Source of the DNA: an uncultured bacterium
Lineage (GTDB): Bacteria > Hinthialibacterota > Hinthialibacteria > Hinthialibacterales > Hinthialibacteraceae
Assembly: GCA_964419335.1 (NCBI GenBank)
Contig: CAYQOX010000007.1
Coordinates: 65,189 to 122,072, forward strand
Direction: 5' to 3'
Length of the DNA stretch: 56,884 bases
A model generated the notes under the pieces. It searched no databases and was not told where the DNA came from. It worked only from the letters and a program-made list of their open reading frames with translations. The position numbers were made by a program, and so were the translations under genes. Of the stretch, positions 1,477 to 41,277 are shown piece after piece; the first letter of the stretch is position 1; each line of letters starts with the position of its first letter.

Positions 1477-1479
1477 TCC

Positions 1480-3232: not shown

Positions 3233-3243
3233 TTCCAGGCTTG

Positions 3244-5290: not shown

Positions 5291-5380
5291 TAGAGAGATG
5301 TACTATTGATTTGAACTATCTCATAACTACTGGTGCATCATCAATGATATTTTTTAAGCGAGTTACTACGTAAATTGGAT

Positions 5381-8188: not shown

Positions 8189-8197
8189 GGTGGTTTA

Positions 8198-17800: not shown

Positions 17801-20800
17801 GAAGATATTTCGCCCGAGATTCGATTAATTGAGATGGGATTGGATTCATTAATGCTGGTCAAGATTGGACAAGAGGTTGAACGGCGCTATCAAGTCGAAC
17901 TCACCATGAGCCAGTTCTTTCATGAAATCCAAACCTTGCATGACTTGGTTGATTATTTAATGGAGCATGGAGATCTTCGTGCCGTCAAAGGGCAAGAATC
18001 CGCAGTTGAAGAAACCAAGCCCAATAAAGAAACACGCTCTTCTTTGCCCTCGATTGCTCATGAATCCATCGAGCCTACATCAAACTCCACGGTGCAATTG
18101 ATGCGAGAACAATTGCGTTTGATGGAGCAGGTGAGCAAACAAAGCCAAGAGTCGGTAGAAAAATTAATTCAAGAACAATTGTCGGTTTTACAGAATAGGG
18201 CGAGGGAAGATGGCAAAAACCTTCCTGCTACACCTTCTGCGTCTACGACTCATACTCAACCTGCTCAACCCAAGCCGGCTGAAAAGAAAGAACCGCGCGT
18301 TGGAGGAGCAGAACGCTTTCGTTCGCTTCATTTACAGCGTGGGGGAATGATGAACGAAAAGCAAAAAAAATTCATCGATGAACTCATTCAACGACACATT
18401 CAACGCACCTCAACCTCCAAATCCATGACCCAGGACTCACGGCCGGTCTTGGCGGATTGGAAGCATACCCTTTCCTTTTGGGGGCAGTTGAAGGAAGCGA
18501 AGTATCCCATCATTTCATCGCGTTCCGAAGGTGCACGATTTTGGGATGTGGATGGCAATGAATATATTGATGTGGCCATGGGCATGGGGGTCCATTTTCT
18601 TGGGCATACACCACCTGTGGTTCGCCAGTCCTTGGAGCGTCAATTAAGCGAAGGTATGGAAATTGGCACCCAGTGTGATTTGACCGGTGAGGTGGCGCGT
18701 TTGATTTGTGAGCTGACCGGCAATGAGCGGGTGACCTTTTGTAATACCGGATCGGAAGCAGTGATGGTATGTTTGCGGTTGGCGCGCGCGGTCAGTCAGC
18801 GGGATACGGTAGTTCTTTTCCAAGAGTCATACCATGGAATATTTGACGGCGTGTTGGCAATGGAAGCCGATGGTAAAAAAATCCCTATCGGTCTAGGAAC
18901 CCCGCAAGGGATGATTGAAAATGTTGTCGTTTTGAAATATGGCGATCCTGAATCCTTGGAAAAAATTGAAGAACTCGGAGATGAACTGGCGGCGGTATTG
19001 GTCGAACCGGTACAAAGCCGGAATCCCGATTTGCAGCCACAGAACTTTTTGAAAAAACTACGGCGTATTACACAACAAAACAATGTAGCGTTAATTTTCG
19101 ATGAAATGATCACGGGTTTTCGCATACATCCTGGCGGGGCTCAGCATTGGTTCGGCGTAAATGCGGATCTCTGCGCTTATGGGAAAATCGTGGGCGGGGG
19201 GCTGCCGATTGGGGTGGTCGCAGGCAAATCAAAGTATATGGATTACATCGACGGCGGTGTGTGGAACTATGGGGATGAATCCGGCCCCAGCTCAGCCATG
19301 ATCTTTTTTGGTGGGACCTTTGGACGTAATCCAATGACGATGGCTTCGGCTCATGCTGCCTTGCTTGAATTAAAACGGCAAGGGGCGGAGTTGCAGCAAA
19401 CCGTCAATCGCCGGACCAGGTCTTTTTGTGATCGTTTAAATTATTGGCTTGAAAAGGAACGGGTACCCATGCGGGTAAAATCATTCGCTTCGCAATGGCG
19501 TTTGGTTCCTTTGGGTGACAACGATCGACAGCCCTTAGAGATGGAATTGCTCTATTTGCAATTGATGGTGAAAGGCGTGTATACCTGGGAAAGACGTATC
19601 TGCTTTTTCTCGGCGGCACATGGGGAGGAAGAGATTGATTATATTTTAAAAAGTATAAAAGAGAGCATTCATGAACTGCGTGATGCGGGATTGGCTTTTT
19701 CGATGGAGGGCGATATCCCAAAACGTTTCGTGGCTCCTACCTCGATTCAGCGGCGATTGTATGCGTTGTGCCAACGTCCCGGGGGTGAAAAGCCTTACCA
19801 TCAGCCTTATGCCTATTGGGTGAATGGGGTGCTCGATATTGATCGTTTGGAAGAATGCATGCAGGAAATTATCCTACGGCATGAGGCGCTGCGCTGCAGC
19901 TTCCATGAATTGGAAGGCGACTTAGTTCTACGGATTGAGGACGAACCCCGCTTTTTAATTGAGCGGTATGAAGCGCGTGACGAAGAGGTTGAGGAGATTC
20001 TTACTCGACTCATTCGCCCTTTTGATTTACATACGGCACCATTATTGCGCATGGCTGTAATTCAAATTTCTCCCGAGCGCTATTTACTCTTTAATGATGC
20101 GCACCATATCGTGATTGATGGATTATCCTTTAATACCATCGTGCGTGATTTGATGGATCTGTACGAAGGACGAACCCCACAACCGGTAAAGCATACGTTT
20201 CTTGAATGTGCAGCATTGTTAGAGAAGCGATGCGATGAGAAACGGTTGGCCTTGTTGGATGCATTTTGGGAAAAAGAATTGCATGGACCGCTGCCGGTGT
20301 TGGAATTACCCACGGATTACCCGCGACCGAAAGAGCCGGATTATGAAGGCGAGCATTTGATCTCCACTCTCGATGAGACCAGCCTGCGAAGGATCAAAGA
20401 TTATACCAAGAAGCAAGGGATTTCATTATACATCTTCCTGGCCGCAGCTTATACGACACTCTTACATCGATTAACAGGGCAGGAAGATATCCTTGTCGGA
20501 ACCCCGGTTTCGGGGCGGGATATTCCAGAGGCACAGGATACGGTCGGCATGTTTGTGAATACCAGCGTGCTTCGCAATTATCCTAAAGCCGATACACCTT
20601 TTGAACAATTTCTCCATGAAGTAAAAGAAACATGCGCGTGTGTTTATGATCATCAGGATTATTCCTTTGAGCGTATGGCTAATCGCTATAACAACGGCAG
20701 GCCGCAAAATCGCAATGCTATTTTTGATACCACATTAGCGTATGAGAATGCAAATGATCGAATCTTCACGATTCGAGATTTAACCTTTACCCAGTATCCG

Positions 20801-23800
20801 CTGCATGATAAGTCATCGATGTTTGATTTTCGGCTTGAGGTTATTGAGGAACAAGACTCTTTATCGCTGGATTTTCAATATTCCACCCAACTTTTTTCTC
20901 GTGAATCGATTGAGAGATGGGTGAAGTATTTCCATCAACTTCTCGATGAGATACTACAAGATCCTTCTACTCCATTGGGTGTAATTGATATTTTACCTCT
21001 TAGCGAGAAAGAATGGTTGAAGCAATGTAACCAAACCCAAGCGGATTATCCCCAAAAAACCATTATCGAATTATTTGAAGAGCAAGTGGCCAAAACCCCC
21101 GAGCGAATAGCGCTTGTTTTTCAAGATACTACGCTTACCTACCGTGAACTTGACCGGTGGGTAAATCGAATAGCGAACGCGCTACAGAAGAAGCACTCAA
21201 TTTCTTCCGGTGATCGGGTGGGTGTATTTCTTGAGCGATCCGAATGGGTCATCTGTGCCTTTCTTGCGATCTTGAAGACAGGCGGAGTCTATGTGCCCTT
21301 GGATAGCGAGTATCCACAGGAACGTTTACGTTTTATGATCGAAGATAGTGGATGTTCTGTAATTCTAACCCAAAAGAAGCTTCTTCCTCTACTGCCGGCG
21401 GAAGTACAGCATCTAGCCGAAGAGATAGACGAACTTGATACATACGAAGAAGCAACAATGGATACCTCGATTTCTATTGATAATCCCGCGTATGTAATTT
21501 ATACCTCTGGATCGACAGGGCAGCCAAAAGGGTGTGTTATCACTCATCGCAACGTAGTGCGTTTGGTGAAAAACAAGCGGCATGATTTTGATTTTCATGA
21601 AGAGGATGTTTGGATTTGTACGCATTCATTCTGCTTTGATTTTTCTGTATGGGAAATGTATGGCGCACTATTATATGGCGGCCGGGTTGTCATAGCCAGT
21701 AAGGAAACCACCCGCGATCCACAACGGCTTCTAAACTTACTTCGAGCGCATCGGGTAACTGTGTTGAATCAAACTCCTGCTTCATTTTTGAATTTGATAG
21801 AAGTCGAGAAAAAGCAATCCAAACATTGTTTGGATGAGCATCTGCGCTATGTCATCTTTGGCGGTGATCGTTTGGAGCCGGCGGCGCTAAAACCGTGGGT
21901 TGATCTTTATTCCCTTTCCACAATTGCTTTGATCAATATGTACGGCATTACCGAAACTACGGTGCATGTGACGTTTTATCCCATCAATGAAAGCGATATC
22001 CAATCGACTCGGGGACAAAGCCCTATCGGCCGCCCGATTCCCGAAACCCAGGTTTATGTATGCAATGCGATGATGCAAGAACAGCCAATCGGTGTGGTCG
22101 GAGAAATGTATGTTGGCGGTTCAGGTGTTTGCCAGGGATATTTAAACAGAACGGAATTAACCCAAGAACGTTTTATCCCTTCACCATGGGGTGAAGGAAG
22201 GCTTTATCGCACGGGGGACCTAGCACATCGCCTGGCTGATGGAAACTTGGTGTATCTGGGACGCAATGATCAGCAAGTGCAAATTCGGGGGCACCGGGTT
22301 GAACTGGATGAGATTCATTTCCACCTGCTGCAACATCCGTGTGTTCAAAAAGCATTGATAACAGCGCATACCAACGCCCAGGAACAGCTTGAATTGGTGG
22401 CTTATTACATAACCGAGGGCGTCGTCACGATCCAAGAATTGCGAGATCATCTTGCAGCGCGCATCCCGATGTATATGATTCCATCTTCTTTCGTAACCTT
22501 AGATGAATTCCCTCTGACTCCAAATGGGAAAATGGATCGCCGCGCCTTGCCTGATCCGCAATCGGCCAAAGTAACAAGTGAGGAAAACTTCGTTTACCCC
22601 CGAGATGAGATCGAGAAAACCATTGCCCAGGTATGGAGTGAGATTTTGGGATGCGAACGCGTGGGGATCGAGGATAATTATTTTGTCTTGGGCGGTGATT
22701 CTATCAAAGCCATCCAGATTGTCAGCCGTCTGTTCCAGGCGGGGATCGAGGTGGAAGTTCGTCATATCTTGGAAGCGCAAACCGTGGCGGGTTTGCGTGA
22801 GCATGTAAAAGATTCACGTTCCTATGAAAAAGCAGAAAGCCGCTTTGGGCTGGAACAAGAAGAACTTGATAATGTGCTTCGCTATCTAGGTGTTGAAGCA
22901 AAGCAAGTGGAAAATATTTTACCGCTTTCAACCATGCAAGAGGGCATCTTATATCACTCTATCGCGGATGAAAATTCCAATGCGTATTTCGAACAATTTA
23001 CATACCGCATACGTGGAGAACTTCATAAGCAATCTTTTGAGCAAAGCTGGAATGAGTTAGCCAAACGCCATAGCGCTTTACGTACTTCCATTGTGTATGA
23101 TCAATCCCGTGAGCCAATCCAAGTGGTTTTGCGGGATCGTCCCGTACCCTTTTATTATGAGGATTGGCGTTCATTCTCTCGTGAAGAACAGAATCAAAAA
23201 CTAGAAGAATATCAACAACGGGATCGGGAACATTCTTTTGATTTGTCTCATGAGCCGTTGATGCGAATTTCGGTTTTACGCATGGAAGAGAATGTTTATG
23301 AGGTGATTTGGAGCCATCATCATATTATTTTGGATGGATGGTCAATGGGGATTTTAGTTGAAGAGTTTATGAAGATCTATGATTCTCTTCGCGCGAATAA
23401 ACCAATCCAATTGCCTTGTGCACCTTCTTATTCTTCTTATATCGAATGGCTAATAGCCAAAGACCGGGAGGAATCCCTTTCCTTTTGGGAACAATTTCTA
23501 TGTCACTATGAAAAACCAGTATCAATACCCAAAACCAAGAACGAAAATGCCATTCAAGATTATAAGCTAAATGAGCATGTGTTCTACTTGGATGAATCCA
23601 CCACGCAGAACTTACAACAAAAAGCCCGTGAACAACACGTAACTTTGAATACAATGATGCAATCGATCTGGGCTTATATCTTGGGAACCTACAATGACTC
23701 TCGGGATGTGGTCTTTGGCGTTGTGGTTTCGGGACGTCCACCGCAGCTTGAGGGTGTGGAAAAGATGGTAGGATTGTTTTTGCAGTCGATCCCAATGCGG

Positions 23801-26800
23801 GTCCAATGGGATGCTTCCACAAAGTTTACTCAATTGGTGCAGCAAGTGCAGCGGGTTTTCTCCGAATGTGAGTCTCACCATGTTTGTTCCATGGGAGAAA
23901 TCTTATCACTCACCCCGCATAAACAAAATCTTCTCGATCATCTTTTTGTGTTTGAAAATTATCCCATGCTGGAGGCTGATTGGCGAGAAACGCTCGGCTT
24001 TAGCGTGGAGGACATTCGCAGCTATGAGCAGATGAACTATCACTTTGGGATCGTGATTCATCCTGGAAATGGACTGGAGGTGAAGTTTAGCTACAACGAA
24101 AACGTGCATACGACTGAACAGATGCGAAAGATTGAGAAGGACATTCGTTCTGTTATACAAACGATGTTGAGGGACGAGTCAGTTTCTCTCAATGAAATAA
24201 TGATCGGAGATGATTCGCGTAAACACTCAGTGCAAGTGCTAGAAGATTCCCTCTCATGGTGGAAGCGTGATCTAACCGTCCTTGATCTATTCGAAGAGCA
24301 AGTTATGAACACTCCTGATCATGTAGCGGTGGAAGGTGCATCGCGGACCCTAACGTATGTTCAATTGAACCAAGAAGCGAATGCGTTGGCGCATGCTCTA
24401 CTCCAGGCAAACGTAGGCCGCGATCGCATGGTTGGAATCTACATGGGAAATGGTATTGATTATGTGGTTAGTATGATCGCCGTACAAAAAGCCGGGGGAG
24501 TGTTTGTTCCCATTGATCCAGAGACTCCCCGAAAACGTTTGGAAACGATACTTCAAAAAATCGAAGCCACAGTAGTAATCACTCAAGCGAGCTATGTTCA
24601 ATCCTTAAAAGAATCTCTCCATGATTTTTATTCCATTGTCCAACCGGAGCATTTTTTCTTTATCGATGATTCAAACACATGGCGGCATCTATCCATGAAC
24701 AACGGTGAATCAGATTCACCGATTCCCATGATCACAGAGCCTCTACGGGATCGCCCCATGGTAACAGATAGTATGTACGTCGTTTTTACTTCGGGTTCGA
24801 CAGGCGAACCCAAGGCGATACTGGGTGGTCATAATGGCCTATCTCACTTTATCCAATGGGAGTCGTATGAATTTGATGTGGATGAGACAGTACGCACATC
24901 GAATTTGGCACCGGTGATGTTTGATGTGAGTTTACGTGATCTTTTCCTGCCATTGGTTAATGGGGGGAGCGTCATCATTCCGGCTCCCGAGGTTCGTACG
25001 GATTTATCGGCTCTGGCGCAATGGATGGGCGAGAAACAGATTACATTGGTTCACATTGTTCCTAGCATGTTTCGCTTATTGCTCAACGAAGTGGAAGCCT
25101 TATCGCTTTCACCAGAGGTGTTTCAAACCTTGCGCACTGTGATTCTCGCGGGAGAAGCGTTGTATGAAAAGGATATTCAACGCGGGCGGGCGTTATTGGG
25201 TGAGCACATCGAATACGTGAACCTCTATGGACCTTCTGAAACAACGCTGGCTAAGGTTTTCTATCGTATTCCCAAATCGATTGAAGGATCCAATCGTGGG
25301 ATCGTACTGGGCAAAGCGATGGATGGAACCAAGGCTTTTATTGTAAAAAATAATCGTGCCGCAACCGTAGGCGAAATTGGTGAAATTTACATTCAAACCC
25401 CATTCGATTGTAAAGGTTATTATGGTGACCCTGAACGTACAGCAGAGAGTTTTGTTCCCCATCCATTCAAAAATGAATCAAGTGAACAAGTTTACAGGAC
25501 TGGTGATTTGGGACGCTTGACGGCGAATGGCGATATTGAATTTGTTGGGCGTCTTGATCGCCAAGTCAAAGTAAATGGGGTACGGGTAGAGTTGGCTGAA
25601 ATTGACCGGGTACTTGGTCTTGATCCCAACATTGATCAATCCACGGTCATGATCTATTCACGTGCGGATGGAGAAAATGTACTAGTGGCCTATTACACCG
25701 AAAAATATCCTGTGAATGAAGATGCATTACGCTCTATGATGGAGCAGTATCTTCCCGCCGCGATGATTCCCAATTACTTTGTACCGTTGGATGAATTTCC
25801 CTATAACCTCAATGGTAAAATTGATCGTAAGGCTTTACCCAAACCGGAAGATTTAGTCTATGACCGGGTCGATTATGAACCGCCGCGTGATGAAATCGAA
25901 AAGCGCTTAGTTGATATATGGAAGCAGGTATTGGGCGTGAAGAAGATCGGGGTCAACTCGCCCTTCTTGCATGTAGGAGGGAATTCTCTCAAAGCGATCC
26001 GAGTCATCTCTTGGATAAATCGCGAGTTTACGTCGGATCTCAGAATACGTTCGTTCTTTGAATTGGCAACGATCCGCAAGATCGCAGAAGCTATTCGCGT
26101 TAAGAAAGAAGTGGCTGCCGATACAATCGAACCACTTCCCAAGCAGCCAGATTATCCCTTATCCCATGCCCAGCGGCGTTTATGGATATTACACCAGCTG
26201 GAGATCGACGCGCGAGCCTATAATTTACCTTCGGTCTTGCTGTTAGAAGGGTTGTTTGATGTAAACTCATTTTGTCAGGCGATGCAAATCGTGGTGGATC
26301 GCCATGAGTCCTTACGCACGACCTTTCATCAAATTAATAATGAACCCCGCCAAGTTATCCATGATCACATTGCTTTTGATGTTGAGATCGTGGACCTTCG
26401 TGATGAAACAGATGGGTTGAAGACGGCTAAAGAAAGTGTAAGAAAAGATGCGCACCGCTCTTTTGATTTGACTCAAGGTCCATTGATACGCGTGCTTCTT
26501 TATCAAATCGCGGATGAACGCTATGTCTTATTCACAAATTTTCATCACATTGTTTTTGATGGAACTTCGATCTCCGTTTTGATTCGTGATGTCTTGCATC
26601 TCTATCAAGCCTTCGTCAAGAAAGAAGAGCCGAATCTCCCCTCGCTTCGGATTCAGTACAAGGATTTTGCCGCTTGGCAAAACGCGCATCTCGCACAAGA
26701 TACGATGAAAGAGCATCGAGAATACTGGCTTAAGAAATTGGAGGGAGAACTTCCGGTGCTTAATCTTCAAACCGATTTCCCCAGGCCACCGGTGCAAACT

Positions 26801-29800
26801 TTCAACGGAGAAACGCTTTCTTTTGATTTAGATCCCAACTTGTTGACATGGTTTCGCCAATATTGTTTTGAGCATGGCGGCAGTTTATATATGGGGGCTG
26901 TCGCCTTAATAAAAACTCTATTATATCGTTATACCGGCCAGCGTGATCTGCTTGTAGGCAGTGTGATTGCTGGACGTGATCTTGATGAACTGGATGATCA
27001 AGTCGGTTTTTATGTGAATACGCTTGTGCTTCGTGATGAAATAAATCCAGAAAGTCATTTTGCTCAAATTTTTGAATCAATCAAACAAACCATCACAGAA
27101 GCGTTTGAACATCGTGAATATCCCTTTGATCAAATAGTGGATGACCTCGGCTTGGATCGAGACATGAGTCGTCCTCCGTTAACAGAAATCATGGTGGTTT
27201 ATCAAAATATGGAACGACATGATTTCGCGATTGAAGGAGTCGAAATTAAAGAACTGGATATAGATTTTCATTGCAGCAAATTCCCATTGTCGTTCGTGTT
27301 TGAAGAGAAACCTAATGGCACCTTGTCATTGAAAGTCGAATATAATACAGATCTATTTCGGCGAAAACGGATTGAACACATGGTTGGCCATCTTCATGAA
27401 TTGTTGCACAGCATCAAGGCTAACTTCAAACACCCAGTTGGTTCATTGAATATCCTTCCCGACCATGAGCAACGATTGTTGCATCAATGCAATGATACGG
27501 CTTATGATTACCCCGAGGATCAAACGATTGTTGATTTGATCGAGCATCAAGTGGATCAAAATCCTCATGCCAAGGCAGTCGTGTGTGAAAAGGTTGAATG
27601 GACTTACCGAGAACTCAATGCGAAAGCCAATTTGTTAGCCCATCGACTAATTCATACATATAAACTTCAAGCCGGCCATCATGTTGGGGTGTTAATTAGC
27701 CGAAGCGAATGGTTGCCAGTTGCTTTTCTGGGTATCCAAAAAGCGGGTGGCGTTTATGTTCCCATTGATCCCACCTACCCGCATGAACGAGTTTCGTTTA
27801 TGCTACAGGATTGTGGCGCGACGCTGCTTTTAACTGATCGCGAATTCGATCAAACTTTAAAGCAAAAAGCAAAAACGGTTTTGGATATACGGCACTTAAA
27901 TGGCAAGGACCCTAGTAATCCACGAGTGGCGATAACGAGCCGTGATGTGGCTTATGTTATCTATACCTCGGGCTCGACCGGACAGCCTAAAGGGGTATTA
28001 ATCGAACATCAAAGCGCGGTGAACCTTTCTACATATCATCGCCATAGTCTCAAAGTAAATACGAAGGATCGGGTACTGCAATTCGCGCCTGCTTCTTTTG
28101 ATGCCTCGGTGTGGGAAATGATCATGGCGCTGGTACAAGGTGCATGCTTGGTTGTTACTTCGCGTGAATGTGTCTATGATCATAAACAGTTTGAACGATA
28201 CCTTCAAAAAAACCATGTAAGCGTAGCCACCTTGCCGCCATCCTATGTTGCCGAGTTGCCGAAAGAAAGTTTGACCTCACTGCGATTGTTGGTTACCGCC
28301 GGAGAAACTGCGCGGGTGGAAGATGCACTTTCATTAAGTCAATCCATCGAATACATCAACGCATATGGTCCAACAGAATCCACCATATGTGCGACCAGCC
28401 ATCGTGTTGATCCACAAGGAAAATATCAAGATTCAATCCCCATAGGCAAACCAATTCAGAATATGGAAGTCCTTATTTTGGATGAACAAGGACAGCTTAT
28501 GCCAATGGGCTATCCTGGAGAACTCTATTTGGGGGGCGTTGGTGTAGCACGTGGCTATTTACATCGGGAGGCCTTGAATAAAGAAAAATTTGTACAACAC
28601 CCATATCGGCCAGAAGAACGGGTCTATCGTTCGGGGGATATGGGATTTTGGAACTGGAATAAGGAAATCGAATTCCTGGGAAGGATGGATGATCAGGTCA
28701 AGATCCGTGGAAATCGCATTGAACTTGGTGAAGTTGAACATTGTATAAACCAGTCTCCAGAGGTGAATGAAGTGGTTGTAACTACTAGGCAAGAGCAGGG
28801 AAGAGATTTCCTAGCTGCCTATTTCACGTCGGAAAAAGAGATTGTTCCTTCTTCTGTGCGTGAACATGTTGAAAAGCATTTACCCGAATACATGATTCCT
28901 ACTTACTGGGTGCCAATGGATGCAATTCCCACACTTCCCAATGGAAAGGTGGATCGAAAGCAACTGCCAAACCCTGTTGATGCCTCGATAAATTCAGCAC
29001 GTGAGTACATCGCTCCACGTACAGAAAAGGAAACTTGTTTGTGTCATATATGGTCGCGTGTGTTGGGGCTTCATCGGGTTGGAATTTATGATCGGTTTTT
29101 TGAACTCGGGGGTGATTCCATTAAGGCAATTCAGATCGTATCGCATGTGCAAGAAGAGGGGTATAACCTCACGGTCAAAGAAATTTTCCGTTTTCCTACC
29201 ATAGAAACTTTAGCCGCACGACTGAAGAAAAATAAAAACTTACTTTCTACGGATCTATCTAAGGAACCGATTGCTTTTACGCCTATCCAGCATTGGTTTT
29301 TTGAAGAACATCAAGATGATATTCATCATTTTAATCAATCGATCTTACTAAAACCCCAGCATACTCTTTGTATAGATGCGTTGCGACGCGCTCTGAAGGA
29401 ATTGGTGAATTATCATGATAGTTTGCGTCTTATGTTCCCTTTTGAAAACGGTGAACGTCAACAGCGTTATCGGGAAAAGGATTCGCACTTCGACCTCCTT
29501 GTGAAAGATCTCTCGAACTCGGTACATTTTGAAGAGTCTTTGAAGGAACATGCGCAAACAATCCAGCAAAGCATGGATTTACAACGTGGTCCCTTATTTA
29601 AAGCGGTCTTGTATCGACAAAACGAAGAAGAACGACTTTGGCTTGTGGCTCATCATTTCATGGTCGACGGAATAACATGGCGAATCTTGATTGAGGATTT
29701 AACCTTGGCCTATCAACAATCACTCGAAGGAAAGCAAATAACTTTACCTCCTAAGAGTGCTTCTTATCAACAATGGTCACAGGCATTACAGCACTACAGC

Positions 29801-30649
29801 CAAAGCCCTAGTTTACAAAAACAAATCCCCTATTGGCGAGAAGTGGAAAAATACGCCGGTAAAAGTATCCCCGTTGATTTTCAAGGAGAAGGCAATTGTT
29901 ATGGAGAAACTAAGGCCGTTGACTTTACTTTAAGCAACGAAGAAACCCAGGCTCTATTGCGCCAAGTTCATCTTGCCTATAACACAGAAATCAATGATAT
30001 TCTTTTAACGGGTTTGGCTCGTGCATTGTACGGTTGGATGAATGAGGAAACGTGTTTGATTGCACTTGAAGGCCATGGCCGTGAAGTCATCGATGAGACA
30101 ACCCGTGTATATCGTACCGCGGGATGGTTTACCAGTTTGTATCCTTTTGCCTTGCCATTGCATTACAATGAGGTTGGTACCCATATCAAGGAAATCAAAG
30201 AAGCCCTGCGCCGCATTCCCCACAAAGGAATGGGATACGCGATTTTAAAATATCTTACTCCTAATTCAATGAAGCAAGGTCTGACTTTCCAAGCACGACC
30301 GCAAATTGCTTTCAATTATTTAGGACAATTTGATCAGGAATCAAAGCAAGCCTTATTTACACCCGCGTTTGAATCCACAGGTCGGGGAGAAGGCGATTAC
30401 TTACAACGCGTTCATTTGCTCGAATGGGATGGTTATGTATTGCATGGGCAATTGCAATTCACACTAAGGTATAACCACAATTGGCATCGACACGAAACCG
30501 CATTGGAATTGGTACAGCGTTATGAACAATCCTTGAAGACCATACTCGACCATTGCTTACAACGTGAGACGGCAGACCTTACTCCGAGTGATGTCGCCCG
30601 AGTGGATATGAAAATCGACGATTTTGAGAACTTGTTTCAAGATGAATAG
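14882..30649 (+). CDS. Hybrid PKS-NRPS: KS-AT(malonyl)-ACP-AMT(aminotransferase)-C-A(Thr)-PCP-C(DCL-like)-A(?)-PCP-C(LCL)-A(Phe)-PCP-E
   Basis: ATG at 14882 with a GAAGGA site. KS: DTACSSS (about 15501), EAHGTGT, NIGHTE. AT: GHSIGE (about 16838), HAFH. ACP: GLDSL (about 17846). AMT: class-III aminotransferase fold with the PLP-Lys in YGKIVGGGLP (about 19184). C1: AHHIVIDG (20102). A1 code DFWNIGMVHK. PCP1: GGDSI (22700). C2: LSTMQEGILYHS, RHSALRTSI, SHHHIILDGWS (23315). A2 code DVRHIALLAK. PCP2: GGNSL. C3: SHAQRRLWIL, HHIVFDG (26543). A3 code DAWTVAAICK. PCP3: GGDSI (29117). E: PIQHWFF (29282), HHFMVDGITW, EGHGRE, RTAGWFTSLYPF, FNYLGQF. Confidence 0.9.
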   Translation: MDSITEQKYKETLRKASERIKALTVENESLKNPEPIAVIGMGCRFPGEANTPASFWELLRNGVDAVDEIPADRWDVEAYYDPDREALGKMYTKQGAFLSGVDLFDSSFFGITPKEAESMDPQQRILMEVSWEAFENASLNPAHFRGSRSGVFVGLSNYDYIQSHIHSGDVERITPYSGSGVMFSTTAGRLSYFYDFQGPCLTVDTACSSSLVTLHLAVKSLQKGECDLALTGGVNLLLSLDSYIAMCKVNALSPDGRCRTFDNEAQGYGRGEGCGVILLKRLSESLQDGDRILSVIRGTAVNHDGRSNGLTAPNGPSQQRVIQQALTDARLKPEEVDYIEAHGTGTILGDPIEVHALDTVYGKGRDQENPLFIGSVKTNIGHTEASAGIAGIIKVILALQNKMIPPSLHFHSPSQHITWDQIPIRVASQLQEWEVKDKKRIAGVSSFGLSGTNSHILLEEAPVNQVEVDPQDPRDSYTLKLSVHTEAALKQSALQFSDFLKNHPEVNLRDLCYTANTGRCDFARRIAIVAHTREEFSKALSAYSQEQKSPHVFLSRYQLKNKEVVFLFTGQGATYKGMGKVLYEHHPVFRESLEHCEEILSRYWNESLLDLLYQGEETRLLETEITQPVLVAFEYALAQLWKHWGIQPRVVVGHSIGEYAAAITAGVFSLETGLKLAVERGRLMQALPSRGAMAAVFASEEHMTPLLEAFTGKIHIAACNAPERMTLSGDADALEAFLEELREKNIEFRRLRVSHAFHSHHMQPMLEAFEQSVKQEKCNPPNLPFYSSVTGKRVDSKELLSSAYWTREIAQPVLFKQAVQSLYDDGMKIFLEVGPTETLALFARQTCSEGLFLSSLKKGVSDWARLQTSAAQLYVHGINVDWHTFESPFSGKRIDLPTYPFQRNRYWLDLCPIRNQKGTIASQSTEHTQDTTRNLTLQNETSTTNQQVKKMDIRETILNELTLQLAEVGGFQQEDISPEIRLIEMGLDSLMLVKIGQEVERRYQVELTMSQFFHEIQTLHDLVDYLMEHGDLRAVKGQESAVEETKPNKETRSSLPSIAHESIEPTSNSTVQLMREQLRLMEQVSKQSQESVEKLIQEQLSVLQNRAREDGKNLPATPSASTTHTQPAQPKPAEKKEPRVGGAERFRSLHLQRGGMMNEKQKKFIDELIQRHIQRTSTSKSMTQDSRPVLADWKHTLSFWGQLKEAKYPIISSRSEGARFWDVDGNEYIDVAMGMGVHFLGHTPPVVRQSLERQLSEGMEIGTQCDLTGEVARLICELTGNERVTFCNTGSEAVMVCLRLARAVSQRDTVVLFQESYHGIFDGVLAMEADGKKIPIGLGTPQGMIENVVVLKYGDPESLEKIEELGDELAAVLVEPVQSRNPDLQPQNFLKKLRRITQQNNVALIFDEMITGFRIHPGGAQHWFGVNADLCAYGKIVGGGLPIGVVAGKSKYMDYIDGGVWNYGDESGPSSAMIFFGGTFGRNPMTMASAHAALLELKRQGAELQQTVNRRTRSFCDRLNYWLEKERVPMRVKSFASQWRLVPLGDNDRQPLEMELLYLQLMVKGVYTWERRICFFSAAHGEEEIDYILKSIKESIHELRDAGLAFSMEGDIPKRFVAPTSIQRRLYALCQRPGGEKPYHQPYAYWVNGVLDIDRLEECMQEIILRHEALRCSFHELEGDLVLRIEDEPRFLIERYEARDEEVEEILTRLIRPFDLHTAPLLRMAVIQISPERYLLFNDAHHIVIDGLSFNTIVRDLMDLYEGRTPQPVKHTFLECAALLEKRCDEKRLALLDAFWEKELHGPLPVLELPTDYPRPKEPDYEGEHLISTLDETSLRRIKDYTKKQGISLYIFLAAAYTTLLHRLTGQEDILVGTPVSGRDIPEAQDTVGMFVNTSVLRNYPKADTPFEQFLHEVKETCACVYDHQDYSFERMANRYNNGRPQNRNAIFDTTLAYENANDRIFTIRDLTFTQYPLHDKSSMFDFRLEVIEEQDSLSLDFQYSTQLFSRESIERWVKYFHQLLDEILQDPSTPLGVIDILPLSEKEWLKQCNQTQADYPQKTIIELFEEQVAKTPERIALVFQDTTLTYRELDRWVNRIANALQKKHSISSGDRVGVFLERSEWVICAFLAILKTGGVYVPLDSEYPQERLRFMIEDSGCSVILTQKKLLPLLPAEVQHLAEEIDELDTYEEATMDTSISIDNPAYVIYTSGSTGQPKGCVITHRNVVRLVKNKRHDFDFHEEDVWICTHSFCFDFSVWEMYGALLYGGRVVIASKETTRDPQRLLNLLRAHRVTVLNQTPASFLNLIEVEKKQSKHCLDEHLRYVIFGGDRLEPAALKPWVDLYSLSTIALINMYGITETTVHVTFYPINESDIQSTRGQSPIGRPIPETQVYVCNAMMQEQPIGVVGEMYVGGSGVCQGYLNRTELTQERFIPSPWGEGRLYRTGDLAHRLADGNLVYLGRNDQQVQIRGHRVELDEIHFHLLQHPCVQKALITAHTNAQEQLELVAYYITEGVVTIQELRDHLAARIPMYMIPSSFVTLDEFPLTPNGKMDRRALPDPQSAKVTSEENFVYPRDEIEKTIAQVWSEILGCERVGIEDNYFVLGGDSIKAIQIVSRLFQAGIEVEVRHILEAQTVAGLREHVKDSRSYEKAESRFGLEQEELDNVLRYLGVEAKQVENILPLSTMQEGILYHSIADENSNAYFEQFTYRIRGELHKQSFEQSWNELAKRHSALRTSIVYDQSREPIQVVLRDRPVPFYYEDWRSFSREEQNQKLEEYQQRDREHSFDLSHEPLMRISVLRMEENVYEVIWSHHHIILDGWSMGILVEEFMKIYDSLRANKPIQLPCAPSYSSYIEWLIAKDREESLSFWEQFLCHYEKPVSIPKTKNENAIQDYKLNEHVFYLDESTTQNLQQKAREQHVTLNTMMQSIWAYILGTYNDSRDVVFGVVVSGRPPQLEGVEKMVGLFLQSIPMRVQWDASTKFTQLVQQVQRVFSECESHHVCSMGEILSLTPHKQNLLDHLFVFENYPMLEADWRETLGFSVEDIRSYEQMNYHFGIVIHPGNGLEVKFSYNENVHTTEQMRKIEKDIRSVIQTMLRDESVSLNEIMIGDDSRKHSVQVLEDSLSWWKRDLTVLDLFEEQVMNTPDHVAVEGASRTLTYVQLNQEANALAHALLQANVGRDRMVGIYMGNGIDYVVSMIAVQKAGGVFVPIDPETPRKRLETILQKIEATVVITQASYVQSLKESLHDFYSIVQPEHFFFIDDSNTWRHLSMNNGESDSPIPMITEPLRDRPMVTDSMYVVFTSGSTGEPKAILGGHNGLSHFIQWESYEFDVDETVRTSNLAPVMFDVSLRDLFLPLVNGGSVIIPAPEVRTDLSALAQWMGEKQITLVHIVPSMFRLLLNEVEALSLSPEVFQTLRTVILAGEALYEKDIQRGRALLGEHIEYVNLYGPSETTLAKVFYRIPKSIEGSNRGIVLGKAMDGTKAFIVKNNRAATVGEIGEIYIQTPFDCKGYYGDPERTAESFVPHPFKNESSEQVYRTGDLGRLTANGDIEFVGRLDRQVKVNGVRVELAEIDRVLGLDPNIDQSTVMIYSRADGENVLVAYYTEKYPVNEDALRSMMEQYLPAAMIPNYFVPLDEFPYNLNGKIDRKALPKPEDLVYDRVDYEPPRDEIEKRLVDIWKQVLGVKKIGVNSPFLHVGGNSLKAIRVISWINREFTSDLRIRSFFELATIRKIAEAIRVKKEVAADTIEPLPKQPDYPLSHAQRRLWILHQLEIDARAYNLPSVLLLEGLFDVNSFCQAMQIVVDRHESLRTTFHQINNEPRQVIHDHIAFDVEIVDLRDETDGLKTAKESVRKDAHRSFDLTQGPLIRVLLYQIADERYVLFTNFHHIVFDGTSISVLIRDVLHLYQAFVKKEEPNLPSLRIQYKDFAAWQNAHLAQDTMKEHREYWLKKLEGELPVLNLQTDFPRPPVQTFNGETLSFDLDPNLLTWFRQYCFEHGGSLYMGAVALIKTLLYRYTGQRDLLVGSVIAGRDLDELDDQVGFYVNTLVLRDEINPESHFAQIFESIKQTITEAFEHREYPFDQIVDDLGLDRDMSRPPLTEIMVVYQNMERHDFAIEGVEIKELDIDFHCSKFPLSFVFEEKPNGTLSLKVEYNTDLFRRKRIEHMVGHLHELLHSIKANFKHPVGSLNILPDHEQRLLHQCNDTAYDYPEDQTIVDLIEHQVDQNPHAKAVVCEKVEWTYRELNAKANLLAHRLIHTYKLQAGHHVGVLISRSEWLPVAFLGIQKAGGVYVPIDPTYPHERVSFMLQDCGATLLLTDREFDQTLKQKAKTVLDIRHLNGKDPSNPRVAITSRDVAYVIYTSGSTGQPKGVLIEHQSAVNLSTYHRHSLKVNTKDRVLQFAPASFDASVWEMIMALVQGACLVVTSRECVYDHKQFERYLQKNHVSVATLPPSYVAELPKESLTSLRLLVTAGETARVEDALSLSQSIEYINAYGPTESTICATSHRVDPQGKYQDSIPIGKPIQNMEVLILDEQGQLMPMGYPGELYLGGVGVARGYLHREALNKEKFVQHPYRPEERVYRSGDMGFWNWNKEIEFLGRMDDQVKIRGNRIELGEVEHCINQSPEVNEVVVTTRQEQGRDFLAAYFTSEKEIVPSSVREHVEKHLPEYMIPTYWVPMDAIPTLPNGKVDRKQLPNPVDASINSAREYIAPRTEKETCLCHIWSRVLGLHRVGIYDRFFELGGDSIKAIQIVSHVQEEGYNLTVKEIFRFPTIETLAARLKKNKNLLSTDLSKEPIAFTPIQHWFFEEHQDDIHHFNQSILLKPQHTLCIDALRRALKELVNYHDSLRLMFPFENGERQQRYREKDSHFDLLVKDLSNSVHFEESLKEHAQTIQQSMDLQRGPLFKAVLYRQNEEERLWLVAHHFMVDGITWRILIEDLTLAYQQSLEGKQITLPPKSASYQQWSQALQHYSQSPSLQKQIPYWREVEKYAGKSIPVDFQGEGNCYGETKAVDFTLSNEETQALLRQVHLAYNTEINDILLTGLARALYGWMNEETCLIALEGHGREVIDETTRVYRTAGWFTSLYPFALPLHYNEVGTHIKEIKEALRRIPHKGMGYAILKYLTPNSMKQGLTFQARPQIAFNYLGQFDQESKQALFTPAFESTGRGEGDYLQRVHLLEWDGYVLHGQLQFTLRYNHNWHRHETALELVQRYEQSLKTILDHCLQRETADLTPSDVARVDMKIDDFENLFQDE
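18290..19700 (+). other. Integrated class-III (GSA-aminomutase-like) aminotransferase domain (AMT)
   Basis: About 470 aa after the ACP and a low-complexity coiled-coil linker. Motifs include GMGVHFLGH, TGSEAV, LIFDEMITGFR and YGKIVGGGLP (the PLP-lysine context). Its position after KS-AT-ACP matches beta-amination modules. Confidence 0.75.
21040..22560 (+). other. Adenylation domain A1, predicted Thr
   Basis: Hand-extracted Stachelhaus positions from FDFSVWE (D235 F236 W239), LNQTP (N278), VIFGGD (I299 G301), NMYGITETTVH (M322 V330 H331). The code DFWNIGMVHK equals the canonical Thr code. The 517 Lys is assumed from LTPNGKMDRRAL. Confidence 0.7.
24270..25850 (+). other. Adenylation domain A2, non-canonical specificity code
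   Basis: FDVSLRD gives D235 V236 R239. HIVPS gives H278. ILAGEA gives I299 A301. NLYGPSETTLA gives L322 L330 A331. The code is about DVRHIALLAK, with no match to the standard codes I know. Core motifs (FTSGSTGEPK, GRLDRQVKVNGVRVE, NLNGKIDRKAL) are intact. Confidence 0.5.
27500..28970 (+). other. Adenylation domain A3, predicted Phe (aromatic)
   Basis: FDASVWE (D A W), ATLPPS (T278), VTAGET (V299 A301), NAYGPTESTIC (A322 I330 C331). The code DAWTVAAICK is one substitution from the GrsA Phe code DAWTIAAICK. A PCP with GGDSI and a canonical E domain follow. Confidence 0.65.
29270..30646 (+). other. Epimerization domain (C-terminal domain of gene C)
   Basis: E1 PIQHWFF, E2 HHFMVDGITW, E4 EGHGRE, E5 RTAGWFTSLYPF, E6 HKGMGYAIL, E7 FNYLGQF. 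The upstream PCP has the GGDSI signature typical of E-coupled carrier proteins. Confidence 0.8.
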
Positions 30650-33600
30650 GACAACAAACGTCATCACCAAAGAAAGCGTTCAACGCATTTACCCTTTGCG
30701 ACCTATGCAAAAGGGAATGCTTTTTCATTCCTTACACGATTCGGAAAAGGCTTTTTATTTTGAGCAGATCCGTTATCGCTTGAGGGGAAATTTAGATGTT
30801 GCCCTATGTGAGCAAGTTTGGAATGAATTAATGCGGCGCCATGAACTGTTGCGCTCTGTGTTTGTAAGTCAAAAAGTTTCTCAACCCGTTCAGATTGTTT
30901 TGAAGCACCGGCAGGTAGATTTTACGTACAAAGATTTGCGGTATTTATCGGATGAGGAATGCCAATCTTATATTGATGATACATTATTTCATGAAAGACA
31001 ACGTGGTTTCGATCTAAGCCGGGATGCACTAGTGCGTATCTATATTTTTCAATGTGACGATCATACCTATGAGATGGTTTGGAATTATCCCCATATTTTG
31101 CTGGATGGATGGTCGGGATCGATTTTACAATCAGAGTTTATTGAGTTATATGAAGCTTATTGCACTGGAAGAGCACCCGATTTAAACCCTCCAGCAGATT
31201 ATAATGACTATCTGGATTGGTGCGAAAATAACGATCGGCAAGAAGATCTCCGTTACTGGCAGCATCTTTTACAAGGGTATGATTTTGTGGCCACGGTTCC
31301 GCAGTGGAATAAGCAAAACCATGGACAATCGTATGAACCGAGCGAGTATTCTTTTCGTTTTGACCACGATACAACCGAAGCTTTGCTTCGACTTGCGAGG
31401 CGTTTGCAGTGCACCCTGAATGTATTACTCCAAACAATGTGGGGTGTAATCTTAGGGCGCTATAACCAAAGTAGCGACGTGGTTTTTGGAGTCGTCGTTT
31501 CTGGCCGGCCTCCTGAAGTAACAGGCATCGATCGCATGGTGGGGTTATTTATTAATACCTTGCCGCTTCGGGTGCGTGTAGAATCCAATTCAACATTCAA
31601 TGAATTAATTCAAGAAATACAAGAGCAATCTTTAGCGAACCAAGAACATGATTCTTTATCGCTCGCAGAGATTCAAAATGAAATTCAAACGACAGACACT
31701 CTTTTAGATCATCTTTTTGTTTTTGAAAATTATCCCATGGATCAACGTTTGGGAGAGCGAGTCAATCTCTCCACAGTTGGATTTGAAGTGGAATCCACAG
31801 AGATGTTCGAACAAGTAAATTATCCCTTTGGGATGATGGTTTTACCTGGTGAAGAACTACAAATATCCTTTCGCTATGATGAGCAAGTTCACACGTATGA
31901 ACAAATGCGATGGATGGAGGGACATTGGCGTGCTCTAACAGCTCAGATTCTTGAGGATCCAGAATTCACTGTTCAAGAATTGACCATTCTTTCCGAAACT
32001 GAAAATCGCAAGGTATTGTATGAATTTCAAGGAAAGTTTGTGGATTACCCACGATATAAAACATTAGTTGATCTTTGGGAAGAGCAGGTAGCGAAAACCC
32101 CTCAAAATATTGCCCTTCGAATGGATAGGAAGGCCTTGACTTATGTTGAACTGGATCAATTAGCGAATGGGGTAGCGCATAACCTTCGTATCCACCATGG
32201 AATAAAACCGGAAAAGCGGATTGGGGTTTTATTGCCCCGTGGCTTTGATTTCATGATTTCGTTGTTAGGGATTCTCAAAGCAGGAGGCGTTTATGTCCCT
32301 ATGGATCCGAACTATCCGAGCGAAAGAATACAATTCATCGTAGAAGATGCCCAGTGTGAGGTGTTGCTAGTTACAGAGGACTCGGATTTGAACTTAACGG
32401 ACACGAATGTAAGTCAGGTCGTTCCCATTCGTACGCTTATGAAAAAAGTGAAAGCTATACCTGAGCTCTCTCTCTCAAGCGACAACTTGGCATACATGAT
32501 ATATACTTCCGGTTCAACCGGGCAGCCCAAAGGGGTGATGCTCGAACATCGTGGTTTTATCAACATGATCCAAGAGCAAATTTGCGCTTTTGGAGTAAGC
32601 GAAAAGGATCGTGTTTTACAATTCGCTTCCTGTTCATTTGATGCTTCACTTTCAGAAATATTCATGGCGCTTTTAAGCGGGGCATGCTTGGTACTTGTTG
32701 AAGAAGAATTAATCCGCGATGCGAATCGTATGTCGTCCTTTATGGATGAGGAGGGAATCACTGTCGTTACATTCCCACCCTCTTACTTACGGGCTATGGA
32801 GAAAAGGGATTTTCCCTCGCTGCGGGTGATGATTACCGCAGGCGAGTCTTTGCATGAAGAAGATGCGATTTACTATGCCGCCCGTTTACGATATTTCAAT
32901 GCTTATGGCCCGACAGAAACATCCGTGTGCGCTACGTATGTTGAACTTGATCCTGCAAACTTACAGCATCAGCCCGCTTCAATTGGACACCCCATCGCCA
33001 ATACCCAAATACTGATTCTAGATTCATCTCTTCAGCCTGTTCCTTTAGGAGTTGTGGGTGAGATCTGTATCGCAGGAGAGGGTGTGGCGCGGGGATATTG
33101 GAATCGCCCTGATGAAAACGAAAAGAAATTTATTGAGCACCCATTTATTCATGAGGGGAAACTCTATTGTACTGGTGACCTGGGGCGATGGCTTGAAAAT
33201 GGGTGTATTGAGTTTCTTGGGCGTAAAGATTCTCAAGTAAAGCTCCATGGCTACCGTATTGAACTGGGAGAAATTGAAAAACAGATTCAACGTGTATCTG
33301 AGATACAACAAGCGGTTGTGCGGATTATCGAACGGGAAGGGGAGAAGAAAGAACTTATCGCTTATTACGTGGCTAGCCGTGAGATCCAAAAAAATGATCT
33401 TTACGCTGTACTACGTAAATCGCTACCCGCGTATATGATCCCGAGTGATTTTATTTCACTGGGTGAGTTTCCTCTGACGCCAAATCTGAAAATTGATTAT
33501 AAGCGCTTACCCGATCCCCGCGAGAGCGTTCGTCAACTAAAAGAGGTTACCGCCCCTCGAAATTCAAGCGAAGCAGAGATGGTCCAAATATGGGAACAGG

Positions 33601-40151: not shown

Positions 40152-40194
40152 AATGGGTTGCTCCTGTCTGTAGTCAAGGATCATTTGAATGCGA

Positions 40195-41277
40195 TTATTG
40201 TTGCATTGTAGGTAAGGTAGAGCGCGTTTGGTCCATGACGTTATTGTTGATCTGATCGAAGAGTCCCGTACTCTGGCTTTCCGAAGTTTGAAAGATCGTG
40301 CTGGGAGAAACCATGGTCTTGCTTGCATCATTGACTTGAACGGGAGAAGAGGCTTTTGATATGTCCGAGGTATTTCCTGTATTCAAAATGAGAGGCAGAC
40401 CTTCTTCAGGACTTCCAATCACCACAACTTTTGGATTCGTTGATCTCGCGAGTACATGAGTGGCTTCGATGCCTCTCCATTTCAAGAGTTCATCGGATAT
40501 CCCTTCTGAGACAATGTCTTGAAAATCGCGGATACCGGTGGCGATAATAACTTTACGTTTTGCTTCTTCTTCTGCCTGCATAAGCAAATACTGATATTTC
40601 TCCGCGTTATGAAATTCCATCAGTTTGTTTTCAATCGATTCCTTAACCAAAGGTGGAAGTTCGATATTGGTTATCAACAAATCATCCAGTTCGACGTAAT
40701 AATCTTCCAATTGGTGTAAGGCTTCTTCTAAAGCCGCATCTAAGAAGCCATACTCGAGTTGATATAATTCTTCAGGTTCATATTTTCCTACAATAAAGCG
40801 TAAGGCCGCCTCTATTTCAGGAACAATGACATTTTGCAAATAATTTGGGCCTAAGTATTCGTGAAGATAATTAAGATCAGTTCCATCCCGGCGCGGGTGA
40901 TGACGGATGGAGATCGTTATATCCACCCGTAAACCATCGCGAGAGAGAACATGGAATGTATGGCGCGTGTGTTGCTGACGAACGTTATAAATATAAATAA
41001 TATCCCATGGAGGAATGATGTGTAATCCTTCATGAAGCGGGGTGGCTTCCAGCACTGTTCCAGTAAAGCGGCGGTACAATACTCCTCGCTCTCCCGATTG
41101 AATGGTAATAAAAATTTTAGGCCAAAGATAGATGGTTAACGCGAGCAGGATTAGTAATAGGATTTCAATCATGAAACGTCTTTTCACAATCCAGCTTCGA
41201 ATCTTCTCTTTCAGAGTTTTTTTGGCCGCCTCTGGACTATGGGGATTTGTCGTCATGTTTGTGGTTGAGTCATTCAT
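40195..41277 (-). CDS. SPFH/band-7 (prohibitin/HflC-like) membrane protein, paralog 2
   Basis: ATG at 41275-41277 overlapping the ABC2 stop by 4 nt. Same core as paralog 1 (ITIQSGERGVLYRRFTG, AEKYQYLLMQAEEEAKRKVIIATGIRDFQDIV). Confidence 0.8.
   Translation of the reverse strand: MNDSTTNMTTNPHSPEAAKKTLKEKIRSWIVKRRFMIEILLLILLALTIYLWPKIFITIQSGERGVLYRRFTGTVLEATPLHEGLHIIPPWDIIYIYNVRQQHTRHTFHVLSRDGLRVDITISIRHHPRRDGTDLNYLHEYLGPNYLQNVIVPEIEAALRFIVGKYEPEELYQLEYGFLDAALEEALHQLEDYYVELDDLLITNIELPPLVKESIENKLMEFHNAEKYQYLLMQAEEEAKRKVIIATGIRDFQDIVSEGISDELLKWRGIEATHVLARSTNPKVVVIGSPEEGLPLILNTGNTSDISKASSPVQVNDASKTMVSPSTIFQTSESQSTGLFDQINNNVMDQTRSTLPTMQQ

Follow-up and report, generated by a model that had tools for sequence, protein, structure and literature searches.

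The 56,884-nt stretch of bacterial DNA analyzed here (hereafter the window) carries on its plus strand a hybrid polyketide synthase (PKS)/non-ribosomal peptide synthetase (NRPS) gene cluster, in which the second adenylation (A) domain, A2, has the specificity code DVRHIALLAK. Judged by its sequence, A2 is a member of a conserved, uncharacterized clade with the signature D-[VAPL]-R-H-x-A-x-L-A-K (the R-H clade, after Arg239 and His278), whose members are spread over several phyla and are frequently encoded near an AsnB-family class II glutamine amidotransferase, as is the case in the window. The substrate of A2 is probably an Asp-type acid, which the partner amidotransferase would later amidate. 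No earlier description of the R-H specificity clade or of its module-linked amidotransferase was found, and these are what is new here, both superfamilies being already known. Specificity codes are the route by which genome miners proceed from NRPS genes to predicted structures; hence, a conserved code that occurs in at least 214 species genomes, and for which no published or curated assignment was found, represents a recurring blind spot. The gene linkage provides a testable assignment, in which an R-H pocket is combined with an AsnB-family amidotransferase and often with an aspartate racemase or a β-hydroxylase.

Specificity code and conservation of A2

A2 is the A domain of module 2 of a 5255-amino acid (aa) megasynthase and spans 527 aa (aa 3130–3657; positions 24269–25852, +; Pfam AMP-binding); the bounds initially assigned to it, 24270–25850, are one base out of frame. 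The reference used for numbering was GrsA-PheA, which on checking yields DAWTIAAICK at residues 235–517. The code DVRHIALLAK, which had been read by hand in the original prediction, was obtained both from a MAFFT alignment to GrsA and from an independent profile hidden Markov model (HMM) alignment, and the codes predicted for the other three A domains (A1, DFWNIGMVHK; A3, DAWTVAAICK; A4, DASTIAAVCK) were exactly recovered by the same two routes. The concern that the FDVSLRD and HIVPS motifs might have been mis-registered was removed by the finding that no indel lies between them relative to GrsA; therefore, the register of Arg239 and His278 is sound. D235 (24923–24925), V236 and Arg239 (24935–24937) are encoded within core motif A4, FDVSLRD (24923–24937, +), His278 within HIVPS (25052–25054, +), the pocket residues I299, A301, L322, L330 and A331 between 25142 and 25252 (+), and K517 within core motif A10, NGKIDRK (25817–25819, +). 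The five residues from I299 to A331 are bulky and hydrophobic, and would make the pocket shallow.

All core motifs of A2 are intact (A1, LTYVQL; A3, FTSGSTGEPK; A4, FDVS; A5, NLYGPSE; A7, YRTGD; A8, GRLDRQVKVNGVRVE; A10, NGKIDR), for which reason an inactive or skipped domain was rejected. A2 also scores above the cut-off of the NRPS adenylation model TIGR01733 (360.5 vs. 317.4 bits), with D235 and K517 present. No NCBIfam model specific to A2 or its homologues was matched, and an exact-string search of the full-text literature for DVRHIALLAK and its variants, which did not reach supplements or space-separated codes in tables, returned no match.

The code differs from those of the acidic and amide amino acids. 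Agreement with the canonical Asp code DLTKVGHIGK (T239, K278 and H322) is confined to D235, I299 and K517, which places A2 outside that class, and the K278 and E322 of the canonical Asn codes (DATKVGEVGK and DLTKIGEVGK) are both missing from A2. The closest canonical pocket is that of Ser-activating domains (DVWHLSLIDK), which matches A2 at 5 of 10 code positions and the clade consensus at 6 of 10; Ser domains of Ralstonia and Mycetohabitans are approximately 38% identical to A2 over the pocket region. However, Ser domains carry W239, S301 and D331, in place of which the R-H clade invariantly has Arg239, together with Ala301 and Ala331, and A2 accordingly falls outside the Ser class. The Ralstonia and Mycetohabitans plasmid matches had also been considered as a route to known lipopeptides, and were set aside because they are ordinary Ser domains.

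Among the 120 best protein homologues, which are only 35–45% identical to A2 over the entire domain, Arg239 and His278 are kept in every case, Ala331 in 113, and the full code DVRHLA[LIV]LAK in 87. In these homologues and the species genomes taken together, the code has the general form D-V-R-H-[LMAF]-A-[LIV]-L-A-K, Arg239 and His278 remaining unchanged at identities of only 40–55%. A genome scan, in which each species was represented by one genome and the pocket-region patterns YGPSETTLA and FDVSLRD[IL]F were used, identified 214 relatives, and 78 loci were retrieved. These loci contain 86 A domains of the family, all 86 of which have the R-H pair, while the two residues occur together in none of the 134 other A domains encoded there. 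The loci belong to Desulfobacterota, Bacteroidota, Acidobacteriota, Alpha-, Beta- and Gammaproteobacteria, Planctomycetota and other groups; remoter relatives of A2 have codes beginning with DARH, DPRH or DGRH. The invariance of Arg239 and His278, together with their absence as a pair from the 134 neighboring domains, shows that the A2 code is not a product of chance. The A2 code had been regarded as an oddity that matches no standard substrate; no published assignment was indeed found for it, but it is not restricted to a single locus and instead marks a large conserved clade.

In some clusters of Bacteroidota (Chitinophaga, L002 and L003; Flavobacteriaceae, L040, L056, L070 and L078; Chryseolinea, L052), three to four consecutive A-PCP-C proteins are all of the DVRH type, which implies oligomers of one and the same residue; glycosyltransferase, esterase and ABC transporter genes are located near these clusters.

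Linkage of the amidotransferase gene to R-H domains

The AsnB-family class II glutamine amidotransferase of the window, the putative partner of A2, is encoded at 36786–38654 (−; Pfam GATase_6/7 and Asn_synthase), directly downstream of, and on the opposite strand to, the gene for a penicillin-binding-protein (PBP)-like protein that follows the NRPS genes. Its score on the asparagine synthase model TIGR01536 is 477.8 bits, as compared with a cut-off of 267.1. The listed open reading frame began at TTG 38696, but the protein start is placed at ATG 38654 (MCGITG), since alignments with homologues begin at residue 15 and an N-terminal Cys is required. The protein has the features of class II amidotransferases, including the Cys nucleophile, the GATase and Asn_synthase domains, a PP-loop and the catalytic Glu. 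E369, D372 and E373 are invariant in 120 members of the AsnB-like clade, and in human ASNS the corresponding Glu/Asp/Glu residues bind the amino group of the aspartyl moiety (PMC6748925). Retention of Cys2 and of these synthetase residues suggests that the enzyme should turn a carboxylate into an amide. A role as a lactam- or lasso-type cyclase was rejected, as the protein has kept both its glutaminase Cys and the R/N-G-E/D residues.

A homologue of this protein (47–61% identical over the full length) is encoded within 10 kb of an R-H A domain in 32 of the 78 loci. Homologues encoded directly upstream of an R-H A domain are 48–61% identical to the protein of the window. In most of the linked loci, the gene is situated 14–100 nt upstream of the R-H A domain on the same strand, and the protein encoded upstream of it ends in a condensation (C) domain, which indicates a module divided at the C|A junction by the amidotransferase gene. 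The linkage was also seen on plasmids: among 72,556 of them, the AsnB-like clade was present in only four (44–53% identity), all remaining asnB genes, including those of Bacillus, being at most 34% identical, and in each of the four the AsnB-like gene adjoins a D-A-R-H-type A domain.

Orthologous clusters with the Thr/DVRH/Phe-like/Tyr-like series of A domains and a PBP-like gene were identified in Magnetospirillum, Tahibacter and related Lysobacterales, Thermoanaerobaculia and uncultured bacteria. The series stands beside an AsnB-like gene in Magnetospirillum molischianum and in one uncultured bacterium, and a further cluster, in which the megasynthase, PBP-like and AsnB-like genes have this same layout, agrees in its Phe-like and Tyr-like codes over the retrieved portion. 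In M. molischianum, the AsnB-like gene lies inside the cluster, with the PBP-like gene on one side and the PKS genes on the other; in two other genomes, it and the PBP-like gene converge, which is exactly the arrangement of the window. These two genomes also share the accessory set of ParA, DUF697, phosphopantetheinyl transferase (PPTase) and ABC genes, with Band_7 genes nearby and, in one of them (L094), an SBP_bac_8 gene. A gene for a DUF481 protein repeatedly adjoins the AsnB-like gene or the NRPS genes in proteobacterial and Kapaibacterium loci (L068, L069, L081 and L095).

Probable substrate, proposed amidation and orientation of the linkage

Several neighboring genes bear on the nature of the substrate. 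Aspartate-racemase-type genes (PF01177 and TIGR00035) adjoin the amidotransferase gene in four lineages, namely Streptomyces, Kitasatospora, Desulfatitalea and Anammoxibacter. Genes for β-hydroxylases of the TauD, CmlA-like diiron and PhyH types, of which Asp or Asn are typical targets, recur beside R-H modules (L027, L025, L056, L081 and L092). In addition, canonical Asn modules (DLTK[IV]GE[VI]GK) co-occur with R-H modules in six loci (L025, L027, L042, L046, L048 and L070), and canonical Asp-code domains are separately present in related assembly lines, which suggests that the residue in question is probably neither plain α-Asn nor plain α-Asp. Taken together, the racemases, the hydroxylases, the shape of the pocket and the active site of the amidotransferase point to aspartate, one carboxylate of which would later be amidated; the shallow, Ser-like pocket would accommodate Asp better than Glu. 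The proposal that a basic pocket signals an acidic residue at position 2 of the peptide thus agrees with the genomic context, that is, the amidotransferase partner, the racemases and the hydroxylases, but it needs amendment with respect to the product, because the presence of the amidotransferase in the window implies that the final residue is probably an amide of the Asn or isoasparagine (isoAsn) type and not a free acid.

Some of these neighborhoods have further peculiarities. The Streptomyces racemase encoded beside an asnB/A-PCP cassette (L087:15448–16218) falls just short of the cut-off of the cysteate racemase (CuyB) model (188.7 vs. 190 bits), and the protein next to it combines a weak QueC-like (PP-loop) match, below the Pfam cut-off, with a condensation domain. 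The C domains downstream in the racemase-containing actinomycete clusters have motifs too degenerate to be called L- or D-donor. In loci of the L027 type, a methyltransferase gene is located directly upstream of the A domain; with the hydroxylase, it resembles the hydroxylase/O-methyltransferase pair of cystobactamid. In Colwellia (L001:11885–14890), an asnB/A-PCP pair is followed by a gene for a pyridoxal phosphate (PLP)-dependent (PALP) enzyme and then by two genes, one with a faint B12-binding match and the other with a clear radical-SAM match, which suggests further modification of the loaded residue.

In the proposed mechanism, A2 would select aspartate, the amino group of which would be held by Asp235, while the Arg239/His278 pair would bind the carboxylate that is not activated. 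The carrier domain PCP2 (25883–26101, +; Pfam PP-binding), recognizable by its GGNSL serine, would hold the residue loaded by A2. The AsnB-family enzyme would then adenylate the free carboxylate, either on the residue bound to PCP2 or on the residue once it is in the peptide, and convert it to a carboxamide. Where a racemase gene is present, the substrate would be D-Asp. That A2 takes an Asp-type acid which is amidated afterwards by the partner enzyme is the part of this proposal in which we have reasonable confidence.

With regard to orientation, activation through the side-chain (β) carboxyl is favored, which would produce a β-linked residue, and amidation of its α-carboxyl would then place isoAsn at position 2. 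To our knowledge, the R239/H278 pair is otherwise confined to the domains that take iso-linked methyl-Asp (MeAsp) and Glu in microcystin and nodularin synthesis, and this occurrence is one argument for side-chain activation. A second is that only the iso-linked amide is unobtainable from the free amino acid pool, and a third is the triad of racemase, β-carboxyl-activating ligase and AsnH known from peptidoglycan synthesis (PMC4155827). This iso-linked version is nevertheless held tentatively, at somewhat below even confidence, and its extension to a widespread type of NRPS module that makes (D-)isoAsn by means of an R239/H278 domain and a dedicated AsnB-family enzyme, in some cases with a racemase, is more tentative again.

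A number of observations weigh against these proposals. The reported hallmarks of the β-amino-acid-activating domain VinN are a β13–β14 loop shorter by one residue, K330/R331 for binding of the extra carboxylate, and a bulky residue at 236 (PMC11253843). These hallmarks were sought in A2 and are absent: relative to GrsA, A1 and A3, A2 has no deletion in the YGPSETTLAK region, residues 330 and 331 are Leu and Ala, and V236 is non-diagnostic; a one-residue deletion in the region of the VinN loop was seen in only two relatives, both from Magnetomorum. The canonical pocket nearest to that of A2 belongs to an α-amino acid, Ser. A racemase homologue was looked for in the window, and none was found there. 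No amidotransferase was seen within 10 kb in approximately 40% of the loci, and the gene of an Omnitrophota member of the AsnB-like clade (L093; 64% identical) has transporter and regulator genes for neighbors and no NRPS gene closer than 8 kb, indicating that the clade is not exclusively NRPS-linked. Finally, D384 and R387 of E. coli (D400 and R403 of the human enzyme) are conserved in the synthetase site of genuine AsnB (PMC6748925), and their equivalents in the AsnB-like clade are L/V478 and H481, the latter within an invariant, clade-specific DHGDR, in a gapless alignment anchored on DR...VEAR with no verified long-type AsnB among the comparators; the diagnostic value of this replacement is uncertain.

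The serious rival retains the same substrate in the other orientation. Here, A2 would activate the α-carboxyl of L-Asp, the side-chain carboxylate would be bound by Arg239/His278, and the AsnB-like enzyme would amidate the β-carboxyl, either while the residue is carrier-bound or once it is released, so that an α-linked Asn results. Such a pocket would be reached by a simple path, since the A2 code departs from the Ser code mainly by W239R, and the loop length of A2 is that of α-amino-acid A domains. The C domain downstream of PCP2 is of the L-donor type, the AsnB chemistry on a β-carboxylate would be conserved, the E/D/E residues being kept, and streptolydigin offers a precedent, in which SlgN1 loads 3-methyl-Asp as an α-amino acid and a separate enzyme, SlgZ, is implicated in formation of the amide (PMC11253843, PMC5357945). 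On the other hand, synthesis of Asn on the line appears pointless in assembly lines that contain canonical Asn modules, the association with racemases would be needless given that epimerization (E) domains readily make D-Asn, and the D384/R387 equivalents are replaced throughout the clade. On balance, the α-orientation is considered unlikely, though well worth keeping in view beside the favored β-orientation.

An anion other than aspartate is a good deal less probable. Since the R-H pair implies no more than an anion, Glu (α or γ), 3-methyl- or 3-hydroxy-Asp, 2-aminoadipate and cysteate come into consideration, and the B12-radical-SAM and PLP-enzyme genes of the Colwellia module, the hydroxylases elsewhere, the near-threshold cysteate racemase score in Streptomyces and the inclusion of Glu racemases in the racemase Pfam family (PF01177) are compatible with one or another of them. 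However, the window and its orthologues have no gene for a hydroxylase, mutase or methyltransferase, so that a primary metabolite is expected; the pocket, filled by Leu/Ala/Leu/Leu/Ala, resembles the small pocket for Ser; the racemases belong to the aspartate-racemase subfamily; and a sulfonate such as that of cysteate is not amidatable by AsnB chemistry.

It is slightly less probable still that A2 activates free L-Asn (or Gln), Arg239 and His278 forming hydrogen bonds with the carboxamide, and that the AsnB-like gene merely supplies this amino acid. Many bacteria have no free Asn pool, and the AsnB-like protein both exceeds the TIGR01536 cut-off and has retained the residues for binding the amino group of the aspartyl moiety. 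Against direct loading stand the ordinary Asn-type A domains in the same clusters, the distinctness of the AsnB-like clade, to which other asnB genes are at most 34% identical, the racemase neighbors, which indicate D-Asp and not Asn, and the existence of R-H modules without a nearby amidotransferase; moreover, the gene is usually inserted at the C|A junction, often 14–100 nt ahead of the A domain, which points to a role tied to the module. The least probable alternative is a small neutral substrate (Ser-like or Dap-like) or an unknown building block, with the AsnB-like enzyme acting elsewhere in the pathway: the partial match to the Ser code and the Ser annotation of the nearest pockets favor it, but the invariance of W239R, the tight pairing with the amidotransferase across very different cluster architectures and the linkage to racemases all argue against it.

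If the assignment based on the gene linkage is confirmed, the R-H code would supply substrate predictors with a new building-block rule, the cluster would exhibit a trans-acting amidation step bound to one specific module, and the orphan lipopeptide clusters of Magnetospirillum, Tahibacter and related Lysobacterales, Thermoanaerobaculia and the window's organism would deserve priority for isolation. Should the module type that makes (D-)isoAsn also prove real, the D-isoAsn cross-bridge pathway of peptidoglycan would have a counterpart among NRPSs, and the window would represent a new family of cyclic β-amino-acid lipopentapeptides that spans phyla and is released by a PBP-like cyclase.

The assembly line and comparison with known systems

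Domains of the assembly line were assigned by Pfam. It begins with a KS-ACP PKS (5375–8188, +), in which the KS and ACP are the sole Pfam matches, the approximately 300 aa between them having no assignment and no AT match; the M. molischianum counterpart does have an AT match. A fully reducing PKS follows (8198–14830, +; KS-AT-DH-ER-KR-ACP). These two genes (5375–14830) are predicted to supply the fatty chain, and its conversion to a β-amino acid would fall to the aminotransferase domain of the megasynthase. According to Pfam and the codes, the megasynthase (14882–30649, +) is organized as KS-AT-ACP-aminotransferase-C-A1(Thr)-PCP-C-A2-PCP-C-A3(Phe-like)-PCP-E, and the last NRPS (30624–35069, +) as C-A4(Tyr-like)-PCP with a terminal condensation/epimerization-like domain, in which HHLITDA replaces HHxxxDG. 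The predicted product is a cyclic lipopentapeptide, β-amino fatty acid–(D-)Thr–X–D-Phe–Tyr, where X is the residue selected by A2. No thioesterase domain was found in the assembly line of the cluster. The PBP-like protein (35145–36728, +; 527 aa; Pfam Beta-lactamase) is the likely off-loading cyclase and would close the ring; its best NCBIfam match, D-aminopeptidase, scores far under the cut-off of that model, and it is 44–49% identical to the products of same-position genes in the orthologous clusters. In Iodobacter (L021), a homologous PBP-like domain is fused to the C-terminus of an NRPS. No MbtH-like gene was found within the window.

The C domain upstream of A2 (C2; 22916–24250, +; LPLSTMQEGILYHS...HHHIILDGWS) is assigned by Pfam and motifs to the D-donor or dual E/C type, a subtype based on its motifs and on its 39% identity to C4, which comes after an E domain and has a common motif set with C2; GrsB C1 served as a further comparison. 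The subtype of C2 suggests D-Thr at position 1. C4 itself has the active-site motif YPHILLDG, with Pro in place of the first His of HHxxxDG, and a Desulfonema relative has an additional condensation-family (E-like) domain at the point corresponding to position 1. The C domain downstream of PCP2 (C3; 26141–27475, +; LSHAQRRLWILHQL...HHIVFDG) is of the L-donor type by motif, and is most similar to the C domains found after R-H-type A-PCP units in other loci (40–48% identity).

Near-duplicate accessory sets flank the cluster on both sides (185–4890 and 38700–43766), the pairs being an ABC ATPase (3244–4890 and 41274–42902), an SPFH/Band_7 protein (2129–3232 and 40195–41277) and a DUF697 protein (811–1476 and 43206–43766). 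Genes for a ParA-like ATPase, PPTase and SBP_bac_8 protein are present as well, and largely the same set is present at orthologous clusters of other phyla (L085 and L094). A 1086-aa protein with MFS transporter, HEAT-repeat and cyclic-nucleotide-binding domains (49543–52803, −) is apparently unrelated to A2 and the amidotransferase.

Among known systems, the microcystin and nodularin synthetases resemble the window in part of the pocket. The codes are DARHVGIFVK for McyB2 and DPRHSGVVGK for McyE, strings for which the full-text literature search gave no relevant match. By these codes, A2 has all three residues of the D235-x-R239-H278 signature of A domains that activate a side-chain carboxyl (McyB2/NdaA and McyE/NdaF types), and it has D235, R239, H278 and K517 in common with McyB module 2/NdaA, for D-erythro-β-methyl-isoAsp, and McyE/NdaF, for D-isoGlu; the rest of the pocket, VGIFV or SGVVG, differs from the LALLA of A2. 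The iso-Asp residue of nodularin comes after a Thr-derived one, as X comes after Thr in the window, and in both synthetases a PKS aminotransferase module likewise precedes the NRPS part. We know of no amidotransferase in mcy or nda, whose products keep free carboxylates. In microcystin, MeAsp is joined through its β-carboxyl, and an L-type C domain follows (PMC2174460); the cluster also includes an aspartate-racemase-type gene, McyF (PMC6562525). A McyB1 C-A bidomain is among the constructs that have been purified (bioRxiv 10.1101/2023.11.13.566838), and PDB 8HLK is apparently module 1 of McyB.

Other systems combine activation of an acidic residue with amide formation by different means. In streptolydigin synthesis, SlgN1 loads 3-methyl-Asp, and formation of the tetramic-acid (amide) moiety has been linked to the separate SlgZ (PMC11253843, PMC5357945); SlgZ is asparaginyl-tRNA-synthetase-like (PMC5357945), whereas the partner in the window is AsnB-like, and SlgN1 (4GR4/4GR5) is a distant match of A2 in the PDB (E = 5e-63, approximately 24th among the matches listed). 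AsnB-type amidation of NRPS products is already known from chrysogine, in which ftChyA activates the γ-carboxyl of Glu and the class II AsnB-type ftChyD, with an intact Cys2, amidates a peptide carboxylate using Gln or ammonium (PMC9622831). In this fungal system, however, the amide forms at the anthranilate carboxyl of the peptide after its release and not at that of the acidic residue, and no conserved gene pair of A domain and amidotransferase is described. IsoAsn is made differently in cystobactamid: CysH, like AlbIV of albicidin, forms the (iso)asparagine unit on a carrier protein within the NRPS module (PMC7966384), where Asn loaded by an Asn-specific A domain is isomerized or dehydrated by an ATP-binding AMDH insert acting in cis. 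A2 has a normal length of 527 aa, no extra domain and a non-Asn code, and its partner is free-standing. A comparable logic is found in the peptidoglycan of Lactococcus and Enterococcus, where the racemase RacD, the β-carboxyl-activating D-Asp ligase AslA/Aslfm and AsnH, which amidates the α-carboxyl after incorporation, act together, D-Asn and D-isoAsn not being substrates of the D-aspartate ligase (PMC4155827). This three-part logic is like that suggested for A2 and its partner, but the ligase is an ATP-grasp enzyme that proceeds via an acyl phosphate on a lipid-linked cell-wall precursor, whereas A2 is an A domain that works with a carrier in the assembly of a secondary metabolite.

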